Shown here one piece after another: positions 1-64,000 of a DNA stretch of 64,000 bases (position 1 is its first letter; the number at the start of each line of letters is the position of its first letter). The stretch is from Eledone cirrhosa. Taxonomy: Eukaryota. The stretch lies in assembly GCA_964016885.1 (NCBI GenBank), contig OZ024742.1, forward strand, positions 371,318,001 to 371,382,000. The letters run 5' to 3'. The notes under the pieces were generated by a model, which made no database searches, had not been told where the DNA came from, and saw only the letters and a program-made list of their open reading frames with translations. The position numbers were made by a program, and so were the translations under genes.

Positions 1-3000
1 GTAGTGAGACATGGGAGGTGAATGTAGAGGTTATGTTATATGGTAGTGAGACATGGGTAGTGAATGTAGAGGTTATGTTACATGGTAGTGAGACATGGGT
101 GGTGAATGTAGAGGTTATGTTACATGGTAATGAGACATGGGTAGTGAATGTAGAGGTTATGTTACATGGTAGTGAGACATGGGTGGTGAATGTAGAGGTT
201 ATGTTACATGGTAGTGAGACATGGGTGGTGAATGTAAAGGTTATGTTACATGGTAGTGAGACATGGGTGGTGAATGTAGAGGTTATGTTACATGGCTGGT
301 GAATGTAGAGGTTATGTTACATGGTAGTGACACATGTGTGGTGAATGTAGAGGTTATGTTACATGGGTGGTGAATGTAGAGGTTATGTTACATGGTAGTG
401 AGACATGGGTGGTGAATGTAGAGGTTATGTTACATGGCTGGTGAATGTAGAGGTTATGTTACATGGTAGTGACACATGTGTGGTGAATGTAGAGGTTATG
501 TTACATGGGTGGTGAATGTAGAGGTTATGTTACATGGTAGTGAGACATGGGTGGTGAATGTAGAGGTTATGTTACATGGTAGTGACACATGGGTAGTGAA
601 TGTAGAGGTTATGTTACATGGGTGGTGAATGTAGAGGTTATGTTACATGGTAATGAGACATGGGTAGTGAATGTAGAGGTTATGTTACATGGTAGTGAAT
701 GTAGACGTTATGTTACATGGTAGTGAGACATGGCTGGTGAATGTAGAGGTTATGTTACATGGTAGTGACACATGTGTGGTGAATGTAGAGGTTATGTTAC
801 ATGGTAGTGAGACATGGGTGGTGAATGTAGAGGTTATGTTACATGGTAGTGAGACATGGGTGGTGAATGTAAAGGTTATGTTACATGGTAGTGAGACATG
901 GGTGGTGAATGTAGAGGTTATGTTACATGGCTGGTGAATGTAGAGGTTATGTTACATGGTAGTGAGACATGGGTGGTGAATGTAGAGGTTATGTTACATG
1001 GTAGTGAGACATGGGTAGCGAATGTAGAGTTTATGTTACAAGGTAGTGAGACATGGGTAGTGAATGTAGAGGTTATGTTACATGGTAGTGAAATCTGGGT
1101 GGTGAATGTAGAGGTTATGTTACATGCTAATGAGACATGGACACTGAATGTAGAGGTTATGTTACATTGTAGTGAGACATGGGTAGTGAATGTAGAGGTT
1201 ATGTTACATGGTAGTGAATGTAGAGGTTATGTTACATGCTAATGAGACATGGACACTGAATGTAGAGGTTATGTTACATGGTAGTGAGATATGGGTGGTG
1301 AATGTAGAGGTTATGTTACATGGTAGTGTGACATAGGTGGTGAATGTAGAGGTTATGTTACATGGTAGTGTGACATAGGTGGTGAATGTAGAGGTTATGT
1401 TACAAGGTAGTGAGACATGGGTGGTGAATGCAGAGGTTATGTTACATGGTAGTGAATGTAGAGGTTATGTTACATGGGTAGTGAATGTAGAGGTTGTTAC
1501 ATGGGTGGTGAATGTAGAGGTTATGTTACATGGTAATGAGACATCGGTAGTGAATGTAGAGGTTATGTTACATGGGTGGTGAATGTAGAGGTTATGTTAC
1601 ATGGTAGTGAATGTAGAGGTTATGTTACATGGTAATGAGACATGGGTATAGAATGTAGAGGTTATGTTACATGGTAGTGAGACATGGGTGGTGAATGTAG
1701 AGGTTATGTTACATGGGTGGTGAATGTAGAGGTTATGTTACATGGTAGTGAGATATGGGTGGTGAATGTAGAGGTTATGTTATATGGTAGTGAGACATGG
1801 GTAGTGAATGTAGAGGTTATGTTACATGGTAGTGAGACATGGGAGGTGAATGTAGAGGTTATGTTATATGGTAGTGAGACATGGGTAGTGAATGTAGAGG
1901 TTATGTTACATGGTAGTGAGACATGGGTGGTGAATGTAGAGGTTATGTTACATGGTAATGAGACATGGGTAGTGAATGTAGAGGTTATGTTACATGGTAG
2001 TGAGACATGGGTGGTGAATGTAGAGGTTATGTTACATGGTAGTGAGACATGGGTGGTGAATGTAAAGGTTATGTTACATGGTAGTGAGACATGGGTGGTG
2101 AATGTAGAGGTTATGTTACATGGCTGGTGAATGTAGAGGTTATGTTACATGGTAGTGACACATGTGTGGTGAATGTAGAGGTTATGTTACATGGTAGTGA
2201 GACATGGGTGGTGAATGTAGATGTTATGTTACATGGTAGTGAGACATGGGTGGTGAATGTAAAGGTTATGTTACATGGTAGTGAGACATGGGTGGTGAAT
2301 GTAGAGGTTATGTTACATGGCTGGTGAATGTAGAGGTTATGTTACATGGTAGTGAGACATGGGTGGTGAATGTAGAGGTTATGTTACATGGTAGTGAGAC
2401 ATGGGTAGCGAATGTAGAGTTTATGTTACAAGGTAGTGAGACATGGGTAGTGAATGTAGAGGTTATGTTACATGGTAGTGAAATCTGGGTGGTGAATGTA
2501 GAGGTTATGTTACATGCTAATGAGACATGGACACTGAATGTAGAGGTTATGTTACATTGTAGTGAGACATGGGTAGTGAATGTAGAGGTTATGTTACATG
2601 GTAGTGAATGTAGAGGTTATGTTACATGGTAGTGAGACATGGGTGGTGAATGTAGAGGTTATGTTACATGGTAGTGAGACATGGGTGGTGAATGTAGAGG
2701 TTATGTTACATGGTAATGAGACATGGGTAGTGAATGTAGAGGTTAAGTTACATGGTAGTGAGACATGGGTGGTGTATGTACGTTATGTTACATGGTAGTG
2801 AGACATGGACAGTGAATGTAGAGGTTATGTTACATGGTAGTGAGACATGGGTGGTGAATGTAGAGGTTATGTTACATGGTAGTGAGACATGGGTAGTGAA
2901 TGTAGAGGTTATGATACATCGTAGTGAGACATGGGTCGTGAATGTAGAGGTTATGTTACAAGGTAGTGAGACATGCGTAGTGAATGTAGAGGTTATGTTA

Positions 3001-6000
3001 CATGGTAATGAGACATGGGTAGTGAATGTAGAGGTTGTGTTACATGGTAGTGAGACGTGGGTAGTGAACGTAAAGGTTATGTTACATGGTAGTGAGGCAT
3101 GGGTAGTGAATGTAGAGGTTATGTTACATGGTAGTGAGACATGGGTAGTGAATGTAGAGGTTATGTTATATGGTAGTGAATGTAGAGGTTATGTTACATG
3201 GTAGTGAGACATGGGTAGTGAATGTAGAGTTTATGTTACAAGGTAGTGAGACATGGGTAGTGAATGTAGAGGTTATGTTACATGGTAGTGAAATCTGGGT
3301 GGTGAATGTAGAGGTTATGTTACATGCTAATGAGACATGGACAGTGAATGTAGAGGTTATGTTACATGGACAATGAATGTAGAGGTTATGTTACATTGTA
3401 GTGAGACATGGGTAGTGAATGTAGAGGTTATGTTACATGGTAGTGAGACATGGGTGGTGAATATAGAGGTTATGTTACATGGTAGTGAATGTAGAGTTTA
3501 TGTTACATGGTAATGAGACATGGGTGGTGAATGTAGAGGTTATGTTACATGGTAATGAGACATGGGTAGTGAATGTAGAGGTTGTGTTACATGGTAGTGA
3601 GACATGGGTAGTGAACGTAGAGGTTATGTTACATGGTAGTGAGGCATGGGTAGTGAATTTAGAGGTTATGTTACATGGTAGTGACACATGGGTAGTGAAT
3701 GTAGAGGTTATGTTATATGGTAGTGAGACATGGGTAGTGAATGTAGAGGTTATGTTACATGGTAGTGAAATCTGGGTGGTGAATATAGAGGTTATGTTAC
3801 ATGCTAATGAGACATGGACAGTGAATGTAGAGGTTATGTTACATTGTAGTGAGACATGGGTAGTGAATGTAGAGGTTATGTTACATGGTAGTGAGACATG
3901 GGTAGTGAATGTAGAGGTTATGTTACATGGTAGTGAATGTAGAGGTTATGTTACATGATAGTGAGACATGGGTGGTGAATGTAGAGGTTATGTTACATGG
4001 TCGTGAATGTAGAGCTTATGTTACATGCTAATGAGACATGGACAGTGAATGTAGAGGTTATGTTACATGGACAGTGAATGTAGAGGTTATGTTACATTGT
4101 AGTGAGACATGGGTAGTGAATGTAGAGGTTATGTTACATGGTAGTGAATGTAGAGGTTATGTTACATGGTAGTGAGACATGGGTAGTGAATGTAGAGGTT
4201 ATGTTACATGGTAGTGTGACATGGGTTGTGAATGTAGAGGTTATGTTACATGGTAGTGAATGTAGAGGTTATGTTACATGGGTAGCGAATGTAGAGATTA
4301 TGTTACAAGGTAGTGAGACATGGGGGGTGAATGTATAGGTTATGTTACATGGTAGCGAGACATGGGTGGTGAATGTAGAGTTTCTGTTTCATGGTAATGA
4401 GACATGGGTAGTGAATGTAGAGGTTGTTACATGGGTAGTGAATGTAGAGGTTATGTTACATGGGTAGTGAATGTAGAGGTTATGTTACATGGTAGTGAAT
4501 GTAGAGGTTATGTTACATGGTAGTGAATGTAGAGGTTATGTTACATGGTAGTGAATGTAGAGGTTATGTTACATGGTAGTGAATGTAGAGGTTATGTTAC
4601 ATGGTAGTGAATGTAGAGATTATGTTACAAAGTAGTGAGACATATGTGATGGATGTAGAGGTTATGTTACATGGTAATGAGACATGGGTGGTGAATGTAG
4701 AGTTTCTGTTACATGGTAATGAGACATGGGTAGTGAATGTAGAGTTTCTGTTACATGGTAATGAGACATGGGTAGTGAATGTAGAGGTTATGTTTCATGG
4801 TAGTGAGACGTGGGTAGTGAATGTAGAGGTTATGTTATATGGTAGTGAGACATGGGTAGTGAATGTAGGGGTTATGTTACATGGTAGTGAATGTAGAGGT
4901 TATGTTACATGGTAGTGAGACATGGGTGGTGAATGTAGAGGTTATGTTACATGGTAGTGAGACATGGGTGGTGAATGTAGAGATTATGTTACATGGTAGT
5001 GAGACATGGACAGGGAATGTAGAGGTTAAGTTACATGGTAGTGAGATATGCGTGGTGAATGTAGAGGTTGTTACATGGTAGTGAGACATGGGTATTGAAC
5101 GTAGAGGTTATGTTACATGGTAGTGAGACATGGGTGTTGAATGTAGAGGTTATGTTACATGGTAGTGAATGTAGAGGTTATGTTACATGGTAGTGAGACA
5201 TGGGGAATGAATGTAGATGTTATGTTACATGGTAGGGAATGTAGAGGTTATGTTACATGGTAATGAGACATGGGAGTGAATGTAGAGGTTATGTTACATT
5301 GTAGTGAGACATGGGTAGTGAATGTAGAGGTTATGTTACATGGTAGTGAGACATGGGTAGTGAATGTAGAGGTTATGTTACATGGTAGTGAGACATGGGT
5401 GGTGAATGTAGAGGTTATGTTACATGGTAGTGAATATAGAGGTTATGTTACATGGTAGTGAAATCTGGGTGGTGAATGTAGAGGTTATGTTACATGCTAA
5501 TGAGACATGGACAGTGAATGTAGAGGTTATGTTACATGGTAGTGAGATATGGGTAGTGAATGTAGAGGTTATGTTACATGGTAGTGAGACATGGACAGTG
5601 AATGTAGAGGTTATGTTACATGGTAGTGAGTCATGGGTGGTGAATGTAGAGGTTATGTTACATGGTAGTGAGACATGGGTGGTGAATGTAGAGGTTATGT
5701 TACATGGTAGTGAGACATGGGTGGTGAATGTAGAGGTTATGTTACATGGTAGTGAATATAGAGGTTATGTTACATGGTAGTGAGGCATGGACAGTGAATG
5801 TAGAGGTTATGTTACATGGTAGTGAGATATGGGTAGTGAATGTAGAGGTTATGTTACATGGTAGTGAGATATGGGTAGTGAATGTAGAGGTTATGTTACA
5901 TGGTAGTGAGATATGGGTAGTGAATGTAGAGGTTATGTTACATGGTGGTGAGACATGGGTGGTAAATGTAGAGGTTATGTTACATGGTAGTGAGACATGG

Positions 6001-9000
6001 GTGGTGAATGTAGAGGTTATGTTACATGGTAGTGAATGTAGAGGTTATGTTACATGGCTGGTGAATGTAGAGGTTATGTTACATGGTAGTGAGACATGGG
6101 TGGTGAATGTAGAGGTTATGTTATATGGTAGTGAGACATGGGTGGTGAATGTAGAGGTTATGTTACATGGTAGTGACACATGGGTAGTGAATGTAGAGGT
6201 TATGTTACATGGTAGTGAGACATGGGTGGTGAATGTAGAGGTTATGTTACATGGTAGTGAATGTAGAGGTTATGTTACATGGCTGGTGAATGTAGAGGTT
6301 ATGTTACATGGTAGTGAGACATGGGTGGTGAATGTAGAGGTTATGTTATATGGTAGTGAGACATGGCTGGTGAATGTAGAGGTTATGTTACATGGTAGTG
6401 ACACATGGCTAGTGAATGTAGAGGTTATGTTACATGGTAGTGAATGTAGAGGTTATGTTACATGGGTGGTGAATGTAAAGGTTATGTTACATGGTATTGA
6501 GATACGGGTGGTGAATGTAGAGGTTATGTTACATGGTAGTGTGACATAGGTGGTGAATGTAGAGGTTATGTTACATGGTAGTGTGACATAGGTGGTGAAT
6601 GTAGAGGTTATGTTACAAGGTAGTGAGACATGGGTGGTGAATGCAGAGGTTATGTTACATGGTAGTGAGACATGGACAGTGAATGTAGAGGTTATGTTAC
6701 ATGGGTAGTGAATGTAGAGGTTGTTACATGGGTGGTGAATGTAGAGGTTATGTTACATGGTAATGAGACATCGGTAGTGAATGTAGAGGTTATGTTACAT
6801 GGGTGGTGAATGTAGAGGTTATGTTACATGGGTAGTGAATGTAGAGGTTATGTTACATGGTAATGAGACATGGGTATAGAATGTAGGTTATGTTACATGG
6901 TAGTGAGACATGGGTGGTGAATGTAGAGGTTATGTTACATGGGTGGTGAATGTAGAGGTTATGTTACATGGTAGTGAGATATGGGTGGTGAATGTAGAGG
7001 TTATGTTATATGGTAGTGAGACATGGGTAGTGAATGTAGAGGTTATGTTACATCGTAGTGAGACATGGGAGGTGAATGTAGAGGTTATGTTATATGGTAG
7101 TGAGACATGGGTAGTGAATGTAGAGGTTATGTTACATGGTAGTGAGACATGGGTGGTGAATGTAGAGGTTATGTTACATGGTAATGAGACATGGGTAGTG
7201 AATGTAGAGGTTATGTTACATGGTAGTGAGACATGGGTGGTGAATGTAGAGGTTATGTTACATGGTAGTGAGACATGGGTGGTGAATGTAAAGGTTATGT
7301 TACATGGTAGTGAGACATGGGTGGTGAATGTAGAGGTTATGTTACATGGCTGGTGAATGTAGAGGTTATGTTACATGGTAGTGACACATGTGTGGTGAAT
7401 GTAGAGGTTATGTTACATGGGTGGTGAATGTAGAGGTTATGTTACATGGTAGTGAGACATGGGTGGTGAATGTAGAGGTTATGTTACATGGCTGGTGAAT
7501 GTAGAGGTTATGTTACATGGTAGTGACACATGTGTGGTGAATGTAGAGGTTATGTTACATGGGTGGTGAATGTAGAGGTTATGTTACATGGTAGTGAGAC
7601 ATGGGTGGTGAATGTAGAGGTTATGTTACATGGTAGTGACACATGGGTAGTGAATGTAGAGGTTATGTTACATGGGTGGTGAATGTAGAGGTTATGTTAC
7701 ATGGTAATGAGACATGGGTAGTGAATGTAGAGGTTATGTTACATGGTAGTGAATGTAGACGTTATGTTACATGGTAGTGAGACATGGCTGGTGAATGTAG
7801 AGGTTATGTTACATGGTAGTGACACATGTGTGGTGAATGTAGAGGTTATGTTACATGGTAGTGAGACATGGGTGGTGAATGTAGAGGTTATGTTACATGG
7901 TAGTGAGACATGGGTGGTGAATGTAAAGGTTATGTTACATGGTAGTGAGACATGGGTGGTGAATGTAGAGGTTATGTTACATGGCTGGTGAATGTAGAGG
8001 TTATGTTACATGGTAGTGAGACATGGGTGGTGAATGTAGAGGTTATGTTACATGGTAGTGAGACATGGGTAGCGAATGTAGAGTTTATGTTACAAGGTAG
8101 TGAGACATGGGTAGTGAATGTAGAGGTTATGTTACATGGTAGTGAAATCTGGGTGGTGAATGTAGAGGTTATGTTACATGCTAATGAGACATGGACACTG
8201 AATGTAGAGGTTATGTTACATTGTAGTGAGACATGGGTAGTGAATGTAGAGGTTATGTTACATGGTAGTGAATGTAGAGGTTATGTTACATGCTAATGAG
8301 ACATGGACACTGAATGTAGAGGTTATGTTACATGGTAGTGAGATATGGGTGGTGAATGTAGAGGTTATGTTACATGGTAGTGTGACATAGGTGGTGAATG
8401 TAGAGGTTATGTTACATGGTAGTGTGACATAGGTGGTGAATGTAGAGGTTATGTTACAAGGTAGTGAGACATGGGTGGTGAATGCAGAGGTTATGTTACA
8501 TGGTAGTGAATGTAGAGGTTATGTTACATGGGTAGTGAATGTAGAGGTTGTTACATGGGTGGTGAATGTAGAGGTTATGTTACATGGTAATGAGACATCG
8601 GTAGTGAATGTAGAGGTTATGTTACATGGGTGGTGAATGTAGAGGTTATGTTACATGGTAGTGAATGTAGAGGTTATGTTACATGGTAATGAGACATGGG
8701 TATAGAATGTAGAGGTTATGTTACATGGTAGTGAGACATGGGTGGTGAATGTAGAGGTTATGTTACATGGGTGGTGAATGTAGAGGTTATGTTACATGGT
8801 AGTGAGATATGGGTGGTGAATGTAGAGGTTATGTTATATGGTAGTGAGACATGGGTAGTGAATGTAGAGGTTATGTTACATGGTAGTGAGACATGGGAGG
8901 TGAATGTAGAGGTTATGTTATATGGTAGTGAGACATGGGTAGTGAATGTAGAGGTTATGTTACATGGTAGTGAGACATGGGTGGTGAATGTAGAGGTTAT

Positions 9001-12000
9001 GTTACATGGTAATGAGACATGGGTAGTGAATGTAGAGGTTATGTTACATGGTAGTGAGACATGGGTGGTGAATGTAGAGGTTATGTTACATGGTAGTGAG
9101 ACATGGGTGGTGAATGTAAAGGTTATGTTACATGGTAGTGAGACATGGGTGGTGAATGTAGAGGTTATGTTACATGGCTGGTGAATGTAGAGGTTATGTT
9201 ACATGGTAGTGACACATGTGTGGTGAATGTAGAGGTTATGTTACATGGTAGTGAGACATGGGTGGTGAATGTAGATGTTATGTTACATGGTAGTGAGACA
9301 TGGGTGGTGAATGTAAAGGTTATGTTACATGGTAGTGAGACATGGGTGGTGAATGTAGAGGTTATGTTACATGGCTGGTGAATGTAGAGGTTATGTTACA
9401 TGGTAGTGAGACATGGGTGGTGAATGTAGAGGTTATGTTACATGGTAGTGAGACATGGGTAGCGAATGTAGAGTTTATGTTACAAGGTAGTGAGACATGG
9501 GTAGTGAATGTAGAGGTTATGTTACATGGTAGTGAAATCTGGGTGGTGAATGTAGAGGTTATGTTACATGCTAATGAGACATGGACACTGAATGTAGAGG
9601 TTATGTTACATTGTAGTGAGACATGGGTAGTGAATGTAGAGGTTATGTTACATGGTAGTGAATGTAGAGGTTATGTTACATGGTAGTGAGACATGGGTGG
9701 TGAATGTAGAGGTTATGTTACATGGTAGTGAGACATGGGTGGTGAATGTAGAGGTTATGTTACATGGTAATGAGACATGGGTAGTGAATGTAGAGGTTAA
9801 GTTACATGGTAGTGAGACATGGGTGGTGTATGTACGTTATGTTACATGGTAGTGAGACATGGACAGTGAATGTAGAGGTTATGTTACATGGTAGTGAGAC
9901 ATGGGTGGTGAATGTAGAGGTTATGTTACATGGTAGTGAGACATGGGTAGTGAATGTAGAGGTTATGATACATCGTAGTGAGACATGGGTCGTGAATGTA
10001 GAGGTTATGTTACAAGGTAGTGAGACATGCGTAGTGAATGTAGAGGTTATGTTACATGGTAATGAGACATGGGTAGTGAATGTAGAGGTTGTGTTACATG
10101 GTAGTGAGACGTGGGTAGTGAACGTAAAGGTTATGTTACATGGTAGTGAGGCATGGGTAGTGAATGTAGAGGTTATGTTACATGGTAGTGAGACATGGGT
10201 AGTGAATGTAGAGGTTATGTTATATGGTAGTGAATGTAGAGGTTATGTTACATGGTAGTGAGACATGGGTAGTGAATGTAGAGTTTATGTTACAAGGTAG
10301 TGAGACATGGGTAGTGAATGTAGAGGTTATGTTACATGGTAGTGAAATCTGGGTGGTGAATGTAGAGGTTATGTTACATGCTAATGAGACATGGACAGTG
10401 AATGTAGAGGTTATGTTACATGGACAATGAATGTAGAGGTTATGTTACATTGTAGTGAGACATGGGTAGTGAATGTAGAGGTTATGTTACATGGTAGTGA
10501 GACATGGGTGGTGAATATAGAGGTTATGTTACATGGTAGTGAATGTAGAGTTTATGTTACATGGTAATGAGACATGGGTGGTGAATGTAGAGGTTATGTT
10601 ACATGGTAATGAGACATGGGTAGTGAATGTAGAGGTTGTGTTACATGGTAGTGAGACATGGGTAGTGAACGTAGAGGTTATGTTACATGGTAGTGAGGCA
10701 TGGGTAGTGAATTTAGAGGTTATGTTACATGGTAGTGACACATGGGTAGTGAATGTAGAGGTTATGTTATATGGTAGTGAGACATGGGTAGTGAATGTAG
10801 AGGTTATGTTACATGGTAGTGAAATCTGGGTGGTGAATATAGAGGTTATGTTACATGCTAATGAGACATGGACAGTGAATGTAGAGGTTATGTTACATTG
10901 TAGTGAGACATGGGTAGTGAATGTAGAGGTTATGTTACATGGTAGTGAGACATGGGTAGTGAATGTAGAGGTTATGTTACATGGTAGTGAATGTAGAGGT
11001 TATGTTACATGATAGTGAGACATGGGTGGTGAATGTAGAGGTTATGTTACATGGTCGTGAATGTAGAGCTTATGTTACATGCTAATGAGACATGGACAGT
11101 GAATGTAGAGGTTATGTTACATGGACAGTGAATGTAGAGGTTATGTTACATTGTAGTGAGACATGGGTAGTGAATGTAGAGGTTATGTTACATGGTAGTG
11201 AATGTAGAGGTTATGTTACATGGTAGTGAGACATGGGTAGTGAATGTAGAGGTTATGTTACATGGTAGTGAGACATGGGTTGTGAATGTAGAGGTTATGT
11301 TACATGGTAGTGAATGTAGAGGTTATGTTACATGGTAGTGAGACATGGGTAGCGAATGTAGAGATTATGTTACAAGGTAGTGAGACATGGGGGGTGAATG
11401 TATAGGTTATGTTACATGGTAGCGAGACATGGGTGGTGAATGTAGAGTTTCTGTTTCATGGTAATGAGACATGGGTAGTGAATGTAGAGGTTGTTACATG
11501 GGTAGTGAATGTAGAGGTTATGTTACATGGGTAGTGAATGTAGAGGTTATGTTACATGGTAGTGAATGTAGAGGTTATGTTACATGGTAGTGAATGTAGA
11601 GGTTATGTTACATGGTAGTGAATGTAGAGGTTATGTTACATGGTAGTGAATGTAGAGGTTATGTTACATGGTAGTGAATGTAGAGATTATGTTACAAAGT
11701 AGTGAGACATATGTGATGGATGTAGAGGTTATGTTACATGGTAATGAGACATGGGTGGTGAATGTAGAGTTTCTGTTACATGGTAATGAGACATGGGTAG
11801 TGAATGTAGAGTTTCTGTTACATGGTAATGAGACATGGGTAGTGAATGTAGAGGTTATGTTTCATGGTAGTGAGACGTGGGTAGTGAATGTAGAGGTTAT
11901 GTTATATGGTAGTGAGACATGGGTAGTGAATGTAGGGGTTATGTTACATGGTAGTGAATGTAGAGGTTATGTTACATGGTAGTGAGACATGGGTGGTGAA

Positions 12001-14984
12001 TGTAGAGGTTATGTTACATGGTAGTGAGACATGGGTGGTGAATGTAGAGATTATGTTACATGGTAGTGAGACATGGACAGGGAATGTAGAGGTTAAGTTA
12101 CATGGTAGTGAGATATGCGTGGTGAATGTAGAGGTTGTTACATGGTAGTGAGACATGGGTATTGAACGTAGAGGTTATGTTACATGGTAGTGAGACATGG
12201 GTGTTGAATGTAGAGGTTATGTTACATGGTAGTGAGACATGGGTAGTGAATGTAGAGGTTATGTTACATGGTAGTGAGACATGGGGAATGAATGTAGATG
12301 TTATGTTACATGGTAGGGAATGTAGAGGTTATGTTACATGGTAATGAGACATGGGAGTGAATGTAGAGGTTATGTTACAAGGTAGTGAATGTAGAGATTA
12401 TGTTACATGGTAGTGAAATCTGGGTGGTGAATGTAGAGGTTATGTTACATGCTAATGAGACATGGACAGTGAATGTAGAGCTTATGTTACATGGTAATGA
12501 GACATGGGTTGTGAATGTAGAGGTTAAGTTAGATGGTAGTGAAACATGGGTGGTGAATGTAGAGGTTATGTTACATGGTAGTGAGACATGGACAGTGAAT
12601 GTAGAGGTTATGGTACATGGTAGTGAGACATGGGTGGTGAATGTAGAGCTTATGTTACATGGGTAGTGAATGTAAAGGTTATGTTACATGGGTAGTGAAT
12701 GTAGAGGTTATGTTACATGGTAGTGAGACATGGACAGTGAATGTAGAGGTTATGTTACATGGGTAGTGAATGTAGAGGTTATGTTACATGGGTAGTGAAT
12801 GTAGAGGTTATGTTACATGGGTAGTGAATGTAGAGGTTATGTTACATGGGTGGTGAATGTAGAGGTTATGTTACATGGTAGTGAGCCATGGGTAGTGAAT
12901 GTAGAGGTTATGTTACATGGTAGGGAGACATGGGTGGTGAATGTAGAGGTTATGTTACAAGGTAGTGAAACATGGAGTGAATGTAGATGTTATGTTACAT
13001 GGTAGGGAGACATGGGTGGTGAATGTAGAGGTTATGTTACATGGTAGTGAGACATGGGGAGTGAATGTAGAGGTTATGTTACAAGGTAGTGAGACATGGG
13101 TAGTGAATGTAGAGGTTATGTTACATGGTAGTGAAATCTGGGTGGTGAATGTAGAGGTTATGTTACATGCTAATGAGACATGGACAGTGAATGTAGAGGT
13201 TATGTTACATGGTAATGAGACATGGACAGTGAATGTAGAGGTTATGTTACATGGTAGTGAGACATGGGTGGTGATTGTAGAGGTTATGTTACATGGTAGT
13301 GAATGTAGAGGTTATGTTACATGGTAGTGAGACATGGGTGGTGAATGTAGAGGTTAAGTTAGATGGTAGTGAGACATGGGTGGTGAATGGAGAGGTTATG
13401 TTACATGGTAGTGAGACATGGGTAGTGAATGTAGAGGTTATGTTACATGGGTGGTGAATGTAGAGGTTATGTTACATGGTAGTGAATGTAGAGGTTATGT
13501 TACATAGTAATGAGACATGGGTGGTGAATGTAGAGTTTGTTTCGTGGTAATGAGACATGGGTAGTGAATGTAGAGGTTATGTTACATGGTAGTGAGACAT
13601 GGGCAGTGAATGTAGAGGTTATGTTACATGGTAGGGAGACATGGGTCGTGAATGTAAAGGTAATGTTACAAGCTAGTGAGACATGGGTAGTGAATGTAGA
13701 TGTTATGTTACATGGTAGGGAGACATGGGTGGTGAATGTAGAGGTTATGTTACATCGTAGTGAGACATGGGGAGTGAACGTAGAGGTTATGTTACAAGGT
13801 AGTGAGACATGGGGGGTGAATGTAGAGGTTATGTTACAAGGTAGTGAGACATGGGTAGTGAATGTAGAGGTTATGTTACATGGTAGTGAATCATGGGGAG
13901 TGAATGTAGAGGTTATGTTACATGGTAGTGAGACATGGGGGGTGAATGTAGAGGTTATGTTACAAGGTAGTGAGACATGGGTAGTGAATGTAGAGGTTAT
14001 GTTACATGGTAGTGAGACATGGGGAGTGAATGTAGAGGTTATGTTACATGCTAATGAGACATGGACAGTGAATGTAGAGGTTGTTACATGCTAATGAGAC
14101 ATGGACAGTGAATGTAGAGGTTATGTTACATTGTAGTGAGACATGGGTAGTGAATGTAGATGTTATGTTACATGGTAGTGAGACATGGGTAGTGAATGTA
14201 GATGTTATGTTACATGGTAGTGAGACATGGGTAGTGAATGTAGAGGTTATGTTACATGGTAGTGAGACATGGGTGGTGAATGTATAGTTTATGTTACATG
14301 GTAGTGAATGTAGAGGTTGTGTTACATGGACAGTGAATGTAGAGGTTATGTTACATGGTAGTGAGACATGGGTAGTGAATGTAGAGGTTATGTTACATGG
14401 TAGTGAGACATGGGTACTGAATGTAGAGGTTATGTTACATGGTAGTGAATGTTTGAGGTTGTTACATTGTAGTGAGACATGGACAGTGAATGTAGAGGTT
14501 ATGTTACATGGTAGTGAGACATGGACAGTGAATGTAGAGGTTGTTACATGGTAGTGAATGTAGAGGTTGTTACATGGTAGTGAATGTAGAGGTTATGTTA
14601 CATGGTAGTAACACATGGGTGGTGAATGTAGAGGTTATGTTACATGGTAGTGAGACATGGACAGTGAATGTAGAGGTTATGTTACATGGTAGTGAGACAT
14701 GGGTAGTGAATGTAGAGGTTATGTTACATGGTAGTGAGGCATGGGTGGTGAATGTAGAGGTTATGTTACATGGTAGTGAATGTAGAGCTTATGTTACATG
14801 GTAGTGAGACATGGGTAGTGACTGTAGAGGTTATGTTACATGGTAGTGAGACATGGGTAGTGAATGTAGAGGTTATGTTACATGGTAGTGAATGTAGAGG
14901 TCATGTTACATGGTAGTGAGACATGGGTGGTGAATGTAGAGGTTATGTTACATGGTAGTGAGACATGGACAGTGAATGTAGAGG
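1..14984 (+). repeat. Satellite A: tandem array of a 42-bp unit (GTAGTGAGACATGGGTRGTGAATGTAGAGGTTATGTTACATG) mixed with 28/29-bp deletion variants; continues off the left edge; intronic
   Basis: The unit is readable throughout and ORFs show a 14-aa period (GSETWVVNVEVMLH). The array ends at ...GTAGAGG|ATGTGTGAC (14984). Roughly 350-400 units, estimated from length. Confidence 0.98.
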
Positions 14985-15351
14985 ATGTGTGACAAGTGAA
15001 GAGAAATGAAGCAAGTATGCTTCAATGAATGACTAAGCATGGGTGAGCTAAGAAAAAAAATTGGTTATAAGAATAATCAGATGTAGTGTGTAAGAGAAAA
15101 GACTGCGATTGTATGTGCACGTGATACATATGGAAGATATTTGATTGAAGTTCTGAGAGATATCATTGAAAGGAAGCTGCTGTAGAGGAAGACCTGGGCC
15201 GAAATGTTGAGAGCAGATCTCAAAATTCTAGACTTCACTGAGGAGATTGCAAAGGGAGACAATGAGTGGAAGGTGACTGTGCTAGAAAAGACCTAACTTA
15301 CACAAATGTGGAAAAGCAGATTTAAAGTATTGATGATGCCGATGATGATGA
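14945..15351 (+). mobile_element. Decayed 3' end of an RTE-clade LINE (post-RT C-terminal ORF region plus (TGA)n tail), contiguous with the last unit of satellite A
   Basis: Translation with stops and frameshifts gives MLHGSETWTVNVEDV*QVKRNEASMLQ*M...LVIRIIRCSV*EKRLRLYVHVIHMED...GSCCRGR/RKTWAEMLRADLKILDFTEEIAKGDNEWKVTVLEKT*. This follows the RTE motif order LYGSETW...E..MLR...RLRWxGHVxRM...GRPRKTW...D...W. TGATGATGCCGATGATGATGA tail at 15331-15351. Confidence 0.85.
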
Positions 15352-15397
15352 ATTTGCCGTGTTTTATTGTTAATCTTTCTTTCTTTTTGTTTTGCAG

Positions 15398-15529
15398 GCC
15401 CTATCACAGAAGACCCTGGAAATGTTAATGGGGGTAGATCTATCTAAACAAAGCAACAATAATTTACCCACAGACATGCCAATGGTAACGTTTGCTTACA
15501 TCAAACATATGTGGCTCTGTAATCAAAAG
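15398..15529 (+). CDS. MTOR: mTOR (serine/threonine-protein kinase TOR) internal coding exon, FAT domain; 132 bp, phase 0/0
   Basis: Polypyrimidine tract plus TTTGCAG acceptor and AAG|GTAAGT donor. Encodes ALSQKTLEMLMGVDLSKQSNNNLPTDMPMVTFAYIKHMWLCNQK, which aligns without gaps to human mTOR ALAHKTLVLLLGVDPSRQLDHPLPTVHPQVTYAYMKNMWKSARK (recalled from memory). Confidence 0.93.
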
Positions 15530-15670
15530 GTAAGTCTACTACAGTTCTCATGAAATACACTGAGTTTCAATTAGTTAACTCAGAATGTCCTGTACCCCAT
15601 TAGCAAGACATTTTTGTATAAAATTAACAGAAAATATGCCCTTTAGGTGGTATTTCGGCTACTTTGCTCC

Positions 15671-15880
15671 ATAATGATGATAATGGTTTCTGATTTAGGC
15701 ACAAGACCCGCAATTTTGGAGGTGGGGAAAATTATTAAATCAACCCCAGTATATGACTGCTACTTTTGGCACAAGGCCAGCAATTAGCCCAGTGCATTAC
15801 TGGTGCTTTATTTTATCGACCTTGAAAGGATGAAAGGCAAAACTAACCTCAGCGGGATTTGAACTCAGAATGTAAAGGGC
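15671..15880 (-). mobile_element. tRNA-derived SINE remnant with Nin/Deu-domain-like core
   Basis: The minus strand reads CTTTACATTCTGAGTTCAAATCCCGCTGAGG (B box GAGTTCAAATCC), then TTTGCCTTTCATCCTTTCAAGGTCGATAAAATAAAGCACCAG (Nin/Deu-like core). A (CAT/TAT)-type tail lies at 15671-15685. Confidence 0.7.
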
Positions 15881-16848: not shown

Positions 16849-18325
16849 TTAACCCTTTAGCATTCAAAGCGACAAAAACCGACAAGATTATGTCCCCTTT
16901 CATTTATTCAAACCGACAAAAACCGACATTTAATACCACACGGAGATTTCCTTCTAAAAATAAACATTGACATCATCGAAATCTCGTCAATTCGAGATTA
17001 CTGCGAGATAAAGCCCTTACGTGCGAAAATTAACTCTTAGTATAGTTAAAGAACTTGCGATAACACGTGTTTTTAACGTTGAAAGTGTAACATGGCTTCC
17101 GAAAGTAGCGACAACGAATTTGAAGGTTTTACGTCCGACGACATTCGAGATCAAAAAGAAACAGAAGATAATATCAGTGATTTATCTTCAAACGAATCAG
17201 ATATATTTATTTCTGATATATCTGATAATGATGATAGTTACTTTGAAAGTGAAAGAGAAGATTTGACTGACACCATTGAAAAAATAGCAACGTGGTTGAA
17301 AGAAACAACATCGATACATGTTTCGGATTTTACTGAAAATATTGGACCACAACACACATTACCACCCGATGCTAAAGCACTGGATTATTATTTTTTATTT
17401 TTACCACAATCTTTCTTCGAAGTTGTGGCAAATCGCTATGCACAACAACAAATTTCTAATATCGGAAAACCTGATCTGTTATGTTGTTCGACAGATTCTG
17501 CCGATATGAAAGCGTTTTTTACCATAAATATTATGTTTGGTATTAAACAATTTCCACGACTGTGGAATTATTGTAGTACTGATATAAGGTTTGGTGACCC
17601 TTATATATCTAGTATTATGGCAAAAACGAGATTCATTAAATTAAACCAGTATTTGCATCTGGTTGATACTTCAAATGCCCCTGGTAGAAATGAATCAAAT
17701 TACGACCCACTGTACAAAGTACGACCATTAATTGAAATATTGTCAGAAAAATTTAAAAGTGTGTATAAACTTATATATTGGGAACTTTCTATTACGTAAT
17801 TTTACACCGTACATTTACAGAGTACATTGCCAATATTATTTTGACCGGTGAAAAGGTTTTATACATTTTTTTCAATGAAAATATTTGCCTGAAATGTAGA
17901 GAAAGACTAAAACCTTGTACTGATTACACCTGCATTTTTAATTAATTCACCTGTTCAGAAAACTGCTAGAATTGATGGAAATCAGCATCTAGGTCATTAT
18001 TGGATTTTTTTGCAACAAATCTAACAGATAAGGCAGATAAAGTTTAAATTTTTGTGTTTATCCATAAAGTTATTACTTTTACACCTGTTAATTAATTTCA
18101 CCTGCCCATAAAAGTCAAATTTAACAAAAAAAATCAGGTAAAAATATATAATTGTAAATTATAGTTATTTAAACATCTACTGACAAAATTTCAAGTCTGC
18201 ACATATAAAATTAAAGTAATTACAAACAAATAAAATTGATAACCCTCTTGAGTATAATTAAGTGAAAATAATGCGAATAGATGAACATGACATTTGACAA
18301 TTCAATGTGAATGCTAAAGGGTTAA
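16849..18325 (+). mobile_element. Non-autonomous, internally deleted piggyBac transposon (16853-18321, 1469 bp) with TTAA TSDs
   Basis: TTAA|CCCTTTAGCATTCA ... TGAATGCTAAAGGG|TTAA (14-bp perfect TIR). A 23-bp subterminal direct repeat ATTCAAA(G/C)CGACAAAAACCGACA occurs at 16862 and 16906, and a transposase ORF lies inside. Confidence 0.92.
17092..17799 (+). pseudogene. Truncated piggyBac transposase (PGBD-like, N-terminal 235 aa); catalytic DDD core absent
   Basis: Acidic D/E/S-rich N-terminus, then piggyBac hallmarks LDYYFLFL..., MKAFFTINIMFGI...P.L.NY.S.D...I..IM.K.RF..L..YLHL.D, DPLYKVRPLIE.LSEKF..VY. Similarity ends just before the expected IDE catalytic motif. Confidence 0.88.
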
Positions 18326-19025: not shown

Positions 19026-19143
19026 ATGCTACTTAAAACAAGGAGATTGGTTATTGGAATTAAACGGTATTGATGACAACTCAATTGCAAAAGCTTTAGA
19101 GAGTTTTAAAATGGCTCAGGACAGAAACAAGAATTGGTATAAA
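19026..19143 (+). CDS. MTOR: mTOR internal coding exon, FAT domain; 118 bp, phase 2/0
   Basis: TTTTCCAG acceptor and AAA|GTAAGT donor. Encodes (R)CYLKQGDWLLELNGIDDNSIAKALESFKMAQDRNKNWYK versus human RCFLKLGEWQLNLQGINESTIPKVLQYYSAATEHDRSWYK, and completes the split Arg codon AG|A from the previous exon. Confidence 0.93.
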
Positions 19144-61800: not shown

Positions 61801-64000
61801 GCTCTCCTAGACACTTGACCTTCTCCACAACAAAGTTAACTGCTCTCCTAAACACCCTACCTTCTGCACAACAGTTAACTGCTCTCATAGACACCCTACC
61901 TTCTCCACTACAAAGTTAACTGCTCTCCTAGACACCCTACCTTCTCCACAACAGTTAACTGCTCTCCTAGACACCCTACCTTCTCCACAACAGTCAACTG
62001 CTCTCATAGACACCCTACCTTCTCCACTACAAAGTTAACTGCTCTCCTAGACACCCTACCTTCTCCACAACAGTTAACTGCTCGCCTAGACACCCTGCCT
62101 TCTCCACTACAAAGTTAACTGCTCTCCTAGAGACCCTACCTTCTCCACAGTAAAGTTAAATGCTCTCCTAGACACCCGACCTTCTCCACAGTAAAGTTAA
62201 CTGCTCTCCTAGACACCCTACCTTCTCCACATTAAAGTTAACTGCTCTCCTAGACACCCTACCTTCTCCACAGTAAAGTTAACTGCTCTCCTAGACACCA
62301 GACCTTCTCCACAACAAAGTTTACTGCTCTCCTAGACACCCTACCTTATCCACAACAAAGTTAACTGCTCTCCTAGACACCCGACCTTCTCCACAACAAA
62401 GTTAACTGCTCTCCTAGACACCCTACCTTCTCTACAACAAAGTTAACTGCTCTCCTAGACACCCTACCTTCTCCACTACAAAGTTAACTGCTCTCTTAGA
62501 CACTTGACCTTCTCCACTACAAAGTTAACTGCTCTCCTAGACACTTGACCTTCTCCACTACAAAGTTAACTGCTCTCCTAGACACTTGACCTTCTCCACT
62601 ACAAAGTTAACTGCTCTCCTAGACACTTGACCTTCTCCACTACAAAGTTAACTGCTCTCCTAGACACCCTACCTTCTCCACAACAAAGTTAACTGCTCTC
62701 CTAGACACCCTACCTTCTGCACAACAGTTAACTGCTCTCATAGACACCCTACCTTCTCCACTACAAAGTTAACTGCTCTCCTAGACACCCTACCTTCTCC
62801 ACAACAGTTAACTGCTCTCCTAGACACCCTACCTTCTCCACAACAGTTAACTGCTCTCATAGACACCCTACCTTCTCCACAGCAAAGTTAACTGCTCTCC
62901 TAGACACCCTACCTTCTCCACAGTAAAGTTAACTGCTCTCCTAGACACCCTACCTTCTCCACAACAAAGTTAACTGCTCTCCTAGACACCCTACCTTTTC
63001 CACAGTAAAGTTAACTGCTCTCCTAGACACCCTACCTTCTCCACTACAAAGTTAACTGCTCTCCTAGACACTTGACCTTCTCCACTACAAAGTTAACTGC
63101 TCTCCTAGACACTTGACCTTCTCCACTACAAAGTTAACTGCTCTCCTAGACACCAGACCTTCTCCACAACAAAGTTTACTGCTCTCCTAGACACCCTACT
63201 TTATCCACAACAAAGTTAACTGCTCTCCTAGACACTTGATCTTCTCCACTACAAAGTTAACTGCTCTCCTAGACACCCTACCTTCTCCACAACAGTTAAC
63301 TGCTCTCCTAGACACCCTACCTTCTCCACAACAAAGTTAACTGCTCTCCTAGACACCCTACCTTCTCCACAACAGTTAACTGCTCTCCTAGACACCCTAC
63401 CTTCTCCACAACAAAATTAACTGCTCTCCTAGACACCCTACCTTCTCCACAGTAAAGTTAACTGCTCTCCTAGACACCCTACCTTCTCCACAACAGTTAA
63501 CTGCTCTCCTAGACACCCTACCTTCTCCACAAAAAAGTTAACTGCCCTCCTAGACACCCTACCCTCTCCACAACAGTTAACTGCTCTCCTAGACACCCTA
63601 CCTTCTCCACAACAAAGTTAACTGCCCTCCTAGACACCCTACCTTCTCCACAAAAAAGTTAACTGCCCTCCTAGACACCCTACCCTCTCCACAACAGTTA
63701 ACTGCTCTCCTAGACACCCTACCTTCTCCACAGTAAAGTTAACTGCTCTCCTAGACACCCTACCTTCTCCACAGTAAAGTTAACTGCTCTCCTAGACACC
63801 CTACCTTCTCCACACTAAAGTTAAATGCTCTCCTAGACACCCGACCTTCTCCACAGTAAAGTTAACTGCTCTCCTAGACACCCCACCTTATCCACAACAA
63901 AGTTAACTGCTCTCCTAGACACTTGATCTTCTCCACTACAAAGTTAACTGCTCTCCTAGACACCCTACTTTCTCCACAACAGTTAACTGCTCTCCTAGAC
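19796..64000 (+). repeat. Satellite B: tandem array of a 39/41-bp unit (GTTAACTGCTCTCCTAGACACCCTACCTTCTCCAC[AACA|AACAAA|AGTAAA|TACAAA]); continues off the right edge; intronic
   Basis: The unit is readable throughout ~44 kb (about 1,100 units, estimated) with no interruption seen. The first, degenerate unit is TTTACTGTTCTCCTAGACACCTTACC at ~19797. Confidence 0.98.

Follow-up and report, generated by a model that had tools for sequence, protein, structure and literature searches.

A minisatellite nested in a decayed LINE copy within an mTOR intron of Eledone cirrhosa, and related arrays in other copies of the same LINE family

The window analysed here, a stretch of 64,000 nucleotides from Eledone cirrhosa (G000:C3:371318001-371382000), lies 7.6 Mb from the contig end and includes part of the mTOR gene. 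The exon at 15398..15529 (plus strand), which corresponds to human residues 1667-1707, ends an intron of 23,390 bp that holds a large minisatellite array; the preceding exon (human residues 1625-1666) is located outside the window, at L021:1882-2007 in the upstream DNA. A contig of 10,487 bp from run X5 contains both exons adjacent to each other with zero differences, so this intron is spliced out. The original prediction of an intronic position is thus borne out by flanking exons that match consecutive human mTOR residues. In one read run from another species, no long piece was found over either LINE flank of the intron. A further mTOR exon (human residues 1750-1788) is present at 19027-19143, and an intron between mTOR exons carries a remnant of a piggyBac-like transposase (DDE_Tnp_1_7, E 5e-18) at 17092-17796. 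The exon at 19027-19143 is followed by an array of 41-bp units, 55.7 kb long with about 1375 copies, which extends from 19800 to the end of the window at 64000 and on to approximately 75530 (G000:C3:371337800-371393530). The 41-bp unit had appeared RT-like by eye and gave no match to the LINE library. Beyond this array, L032:1921-2073 (at approximately 75921 in window numbering) is a probable next exon, with no PDB or Pfam match.

The array in the 23,390-bp intron occupies positions 1..14984 of the window (plus strand, TRF) and consists of 42-bp units with 28-, 29- and 40-bp variants. Its left edge is at L021:2575, about 7.4 kb upstream of the window, so that the full length is about 22.4 kb. 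The whole array comprises 585 units (408 of 42 bp, 75 of 28 bp and 65 of 29 bp), with a mean divergence of 4.6% among the 42-mers, and the translation of the commonest 42-mer (108 of the 408), VNVEVMLHGSETWV, is the peptide that had been predicted. A higher-order duplication at an offset of 7054-7067 bp spans 1..12235 (plus strand). Within it, 4387 bp match without a difference, running from 169 bp before the window to 4216 against 6885-11270; this duplication of a 7054-bp block reflects either a recent unequal exchange or an assembly error. When the array is divided into tenths, each contains the array exit variant GGACA. A coding role for the in-frame 42-mer was rejected: no stop-free run exceeds 282 aa, 177 of the 585 units differ from 42 bp in length, and splicing removes the intron. 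We class the array as a non-coding minisatellite that lies within a decayed copy of a single-ORF LINE.

The last unit reads on into ...EDV*QVKRNEASMLQ*M, with stops and frameshifts, followed in shifted frames by KRLRLYVHVIHM, RKTW and VLEKT*. This decayed LINE 3' end (14985..15351, plus strand) continues to approximately residue 1014 of a 1025-aa ORF and finishes in a degenerate (GAT)n tail at about 15331-15351; the last unit together with the right flank corresponds to residues 886-1014. The check upstream of the window that had been proposed along with the prediction recovered the preceding LINE sequence, residues 856-891 of the same ORF with a 21-bp deletion, at L021:2502-2580. In a tblastn comparison with an intact ORF, the host copy is 49-64% identical over residues 856-1014 (E 1e-18 and 2e-10), in agreement with the proposed LINE origin with the parent element still attached. 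The two LINE flanks overlap only in the repeated motif, which places the array within one 5'-truncated copy. Abutting the left side of this copy is a second LINE 3' end in the opposite orientation (approximately L021:2358-2498).

Judged by its divergence, the host copy is old: of 40 candidates scored, the closest relatives reach about 67-75% identity. It falls with subfamily A. Young relatives contain a single ORF of 1023-1025 aa, and the intact ORF at L246:2456-5533 (1025 aa) encodes Exo_endo_phos and RVT_1 domains and a PHD-like finger after the RT; the other two frames of at least 200 aa in the 7 kb of L246 are low-complexity. No Pfam match to RNase H was detected in the intact ORF, and the (GAT)n tail is common to the intact and host copies. 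Elements of the RTE clade are not known to carry RNase H and typically end in a short tandem-repeat 3' tail. We take the HGSETW and RLRW motifs of the host LINE to be a putative RTE-type signature, and the architecture of the family fits this clade, with the clade label absent from the 120 homologs listed and from Atlas clusters. RTE-clade elements such as octopus RTE-2_OV are described as having a single ORF with endonuclease, RT and a zinc-binding domain, like the family examined here; compared by description, RTE-2_OV has 1109 aa and a C2H2 finger, and the host family 1025 aa and a PHD-like finger (PMC9115989). Intact ORFs of the young subfamily were found in L245, L246 and L247 (C1:1.85, 9.08 and 9.10 Mb), of which L246 and L247 look like a segmental duplicate because their flanks are common to both. 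A single-copy LINE pattern occurs at 7129 places, mostly in the young subfamily among the matches listed.

The left edge of the array differs from its bulk. The first four units are 47, 33, 47 and 47 bp long (L021:2596-2769, outside the window), three of them keep the LINE-like junction GATATGTTATGTTAC, and 42-mers appear only afterwards. The 6-bp microhomology GTGTGA is present in the 5' flank (L021:2564-2569) and in the array exit (14987..14992, plus strand), the two copies being exactly 47 bp apart in register, and loss of one TATGT converts the 47-bp unit to 42 bp. Internal repeats 13-14 bp apart account for the 28/29-mers and for the 14-bp deletions seen in single copies. Relic 47-mers also persist at the margins of two 40-bp arrays at other loci. 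A slice of 47 bp was likely duplicated first, with the in-frame 42-mer secondary, so the reading frame would be incidental; we infer that the 47-bp unit preceded the 42-bp one. The junction of this array can be constructed from local sequence. Against our preferred explanation, the subfamily majorities contain a direct repeat longer than the 47-bp microhomology. The prediction that a 42-bp slice was amplified in place therefore survives in part: amplification in place is very likely given the collinear flanks, and the relic 47-mers and the microhomology point to a probable 47-bp seed instead of a 42-bp one.

A tandem-pattern search returned 842 matches, 86 of them from the mTOR-intron array, and follow-up searches identified at least 50 other loci with 40-47-bp arrays of the same motif, distributed over three subfamilies, so that the anticipated recurrence at this motif was found. 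At least 46 of these arrays have a period of 47 (2 to 48 copies) and four have 40/42 bp, a count to be read with the fact that one search pattern pre-selected 47-type junctions, both bases being permitted at two junction sites. Four further short duplications at the motif have periods of 35, 27, 40 and 30 bp. Most sister arrays have LINE sequence on both sides and some have lost one flank; the satellite was not encountered at many loci devoid of LINE flanks. The exact junction of the mTOR-intron array occurs in 54 outside copies, all in a separate LINE-flanked array of 127 kb, and a satellite transposed without its LINE was rejected since this distinct array is the sole other holder of the junction. 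The largest sister array (3036 units, 127 kb) is on scaffold C16. In the C16 array (G000:C16:162373-289499, on an 810-kb scaffold), search matches recur at an offset of about 17.5 kb, which suggests block duplications. At L103 (C28:118.0 Mb) and L041 (C1:5.8 Mb), second LINE-derived arrays, with 115-bp and 24-bp units, respectively, lie just downstream of the 47-bp arrays.

Arrays are carried by a minority of copies. In subfamily B, 7 of the 55 copies with one exact 30-mer carry arrays, and a unit-independent 30-mer gave arrays in at least 6 of 188 copies, with none in the 50 of those 188 that were inspected, including 6 within 15 Mb of an end. The notion that nearly all distal subfamily-B copies bear arrays (6 of 8 within 15 Mb) was discarded after the unit-independent set yielded 0 of 6, and the rates in distal LINE copies are modest. 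Arrays at other LINE positions were found by script in none of 48 single B copies and at 1 of 47 array loci, and by eye at L041, so other positions seed arrays far less often. Among the placed array loci, 43 of 48 are within 25 Mb of an end, a zone that makes up about 35% of the listed chromosome length, and on C1-C4 the outer 17% contains 12 of 15 arrays.

This distribution has a regional context. In samples whose positions were chosen by hand, minisatellites make up 31% of the distal sequence (59 arrays in 400 kb) and 8% of the interstitial sequence (5 arrays in 170 kb). Of the 86 arrays tested, four match the LINE library, the mTOR-intron array at the motif and three upstream of the ORF. 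The distal region turns many sequences into arrays, and the LINE motif is one recurrent seed among them. Arrays born from this LINE, suggested as a recurring route of intron expansion in this lineage, are not the main one, with 0 of the 59 arrays in the 400 kb of sampled distal DNA mapping to the LINE's ORF; they are a minor route to intron growth, and nearly all sampled distal minisatellite is of other origin. Further large arrays of unrelated units lie in the 100 kb on each side of the window (L021-L040), with units of 48 bp (23.5 kb), 42 bp (25.4 kb), 32 bp, 30 bp and 43 bp, as well as a 53/27-bp array (9.7 kb) and an ACC-rich array of 57 bp (26 kb). At L019 (C7:7.64 Mb), a 42-bp array of a different unit lies beside a LINE fragment, upstream of the LINE match.

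The arrays share junction features that set them apart from single copies. The junction base G is present in 42 of 46 arrays versus 6 of 136 single copies, and the junction base A in 43 of 46 versus 9 of 136; the mTOR-intron array has junction features in common with the C15, C16 and C17 arrays. The flanks show no such common signal. In the flank tree, array-bearing copies are scattered among single copies and form no clade, the tree being star-like and of low power (120 of 141 rows kept, 21 dropped). Derived alleles shared among array flanks number 15.9 per 1000 sites versus 16.5 in shuffled sets (p 0.755), and there are no diagnostic flank columns of array-bearing copies beyond permutation. 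Private changes of first copies are also found in the units at frequencies of 1/26, 13/34 and 35/54 along the register, that is, almost never at the register start, a gradient that could be an array-edge effect. Changes in the units that are private to a locus recur in the copies at either end of its array, also where the array consists of two copies, and this sharing implies duplication or homogenisation after local decay.

Several pairs of loci share tracts next to their arrays. Loci L101 and L326 are identical at 267 of 270 bases after the array and then at 43 of 57, with 76% identity in the 5' flanks; the 3' sides of L172 and L173 are identical at 137 of 140 positions and then at 68 of 84; and the C15 and C16 arrays have 92% identity over 168 bp at the 3' side versus 80% at the 5' side. 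A window of at least 94% identity was seen in 2 of the 316 pairs between arrays, and in none of the 3453 pairs between single copies or the 2153 mixed pairs; the single-copy control consists mostly of distant pairs and has few distal neighbours. The partners of the two B-type tract pairs lie close together, at distances of 0.1 and 0.8 Mb. In the 1.4 kb compared, no long homology extends past the LINE, and segmental duplication was rejected as the source of the tracts. The exchange that the tracts reveal has an array at both partner loci; from it we infer that a donor junction can seed an array-free copy. Within G000:C28:113-119 Mb, there are six 47-bp arrays in 6 Mb, several with common unit variants and 3' tracts; this cluster is a local exchange network. 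For the mTOR-intron array, no conversion partner was identified: the identity of its 3' flank to other copies or arrays does not exceed about 75%, and it is 67-73% for the 3' flanks of eight other arrays.

We propose, with a probability of about 0.6 for the combined reading, that a likely 47-bp duplication gave way to a 42-bp unit that multiplied in place, and that the arrays likely spread in part by ectopic conversion among LINE copies. The series would begin with an old 5'-truncated LINE 3' end in the intron, both flanks of which are collinear with the ORF, where a duplication between the GTGTGA words 47 bp apart would provide the seed, either spontaneously at the mTOR intron or templated by another array. 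Going by the edge relics, loss of one TATGT would then yield the 42-mer, and slippage between the internal ACATGG/AGTGA repeats would give the 28/29-mers. Unequal exchange in a distal, minisatellite-prone region may have driven the expansion, including the 7-kb block duplication, with the array-bearing intron removed from the transcript by splicing, as the X5 contig indicates. At the family level, exchange between array-bearing loci would be joined by donor-junction seeding of array-free copies, and we lean towards conversion-assisted spread as part of the account. The simplest joint reading is that a donor junction is copied by ectopic conversion or eccDNA and then expands locally. More tentatively, a selfish minisatellite may home into dispersed dead LINE copies through short-patch ectopic conversion of the junction, whereby the donor junction would duplicate the recipient's own 47 bp and give rise to an array able to exceed 100 kb.

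That every array was born independently is unlikely, and many sister arrays instead look seeded from one another. Under independent birth, local slippage at the 47-bp microhomology would generate each array, and the junction bases would be convergent, the better slippers or folders being the ones that expand. Consistent with this, the arrays belong to three subfamilies and have local diagnostic bases, the four short duplications have other periods, single copies L289 and L307 have 14-bp deletions at the same motif, C16 has an apparently direct 42-bp junction, and the array junction folds slightly better than the simple junction (-2.9 versus -2.1 kcal/mol). However, this gain in folding is small, the two-copy arrays L076 and L091 already have both derived bases while their first copies do not, and inter-locus tracts are present. 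Inheritance of the seed, with a master LINE carrying a 47-bp dimer being retrotransposed and the arrays representing local expansions, would account directly for the common junction and for one subfamily holding most arrays. Yet dimers were found in 0 of 48 other B copies of the exact 30-mer set and in 0 of 50 inspected from the unit-independent set, array flanks have no excess of common derived alleles, and arrays also occur in the young-subfamily copy L086 and in A-type copies, so we regard this scenario as very improbable. An array that is real and inflated in length by assembly, or a LINE tail that is a chance neighbour of a transposed satellite, is likewise very improbable. The 4387 bp of exact identity at offset 7054 and the fact that no long read in the data used spans the array would fit inflation, but about 15 kb is left after removing the duplication, and both flanks are collinear with the ORF. 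Both array edges are also covered by short-read contigs of run X1, which may be the source sample and thus not independent: one of 78 bp spans the left edge (L021:2544-2621) with zero differences, and those over 15000-15700, on the right side, match without differences.

The closest known system is the SINE-derived satellites of squamates (sSat), in which an internal slice of a retroelement is tandemly repeated, terminal units run into the parent, and arrays occur at many loci, with up to 1000 units, a subtelomeric preference and a few dominant variants (Vassetzky et al. 2023, PMC10702118). The mTOR-intron array works like sSat, with the same use of an internal slice, terminal units continuing into the parent, many loci and a distal bias, and is not a member: its source is LINE coding sequence rather than a SINE, the units are 40-47 bp instead of 70-290, both flanks are usually kept, and arrays reach 3036 units (PMC10702118). 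The base-level evidence of inter-locus exchange sets the present arrays further apart, the term 'gene conversion' not being found in a term search of the accessible text of PMC10702118. In Drosophila, the spread of Rsp-like repeats into 1.688 clusters left one microhomology junction common to the loci, and homology in the flanks was proposed to let interlocus conversion or eccDNA seed new loci (Sproul et al. 2020, PMC7403614). A common junction across loci with differing flanks is seen here as well. The Rsp-like repeats land in another satellite, whereas scattered dead LINE copies would receive the present arrays, whose unit is itself a piece of the receiving sequence (PMC7403614). LINE sequence is likewise the source of PROsat (L1 ORF2), chicken HinfI (CR1) and a cetacean satellite, cases described as similarity between satellite and LINE, whereas the present arrays are nested in parent copies at dozens of loci (review PMC9659126). 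In the literature outside subscription papers and supplements, we found no account of this motif or of arrays that spread from one LINE copy to another, and the accessible text of an octopus repeat annotation (PMC13282606) gave no term match for 'satellite' or 'minisatellite' as word starts.

The first rise of tandem arrays and their spread to new loci are difficult to follow, as the source has usually disappeared. In this family, dozens of arrays still have parental sequence on either side, which gives access to the ancestral state, the seed length and conversion tracts, and the order of unit shortening, from 47 to 42 and 40, can be read from the parent-flanked arrays; independent birth and seeding thereby become directly testable against each other. 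The mTOR locus implies no function for the array; it does show that an essential gene can accommodate tens of kilobases of tandem repeats in a distal intron. If the homing reading is true, the LINE family would form a genome-wide landing network for the minisatellite, and its approximately 50 arrays, from 2 to 3036 units, would represent a natural time series of satellite birth.
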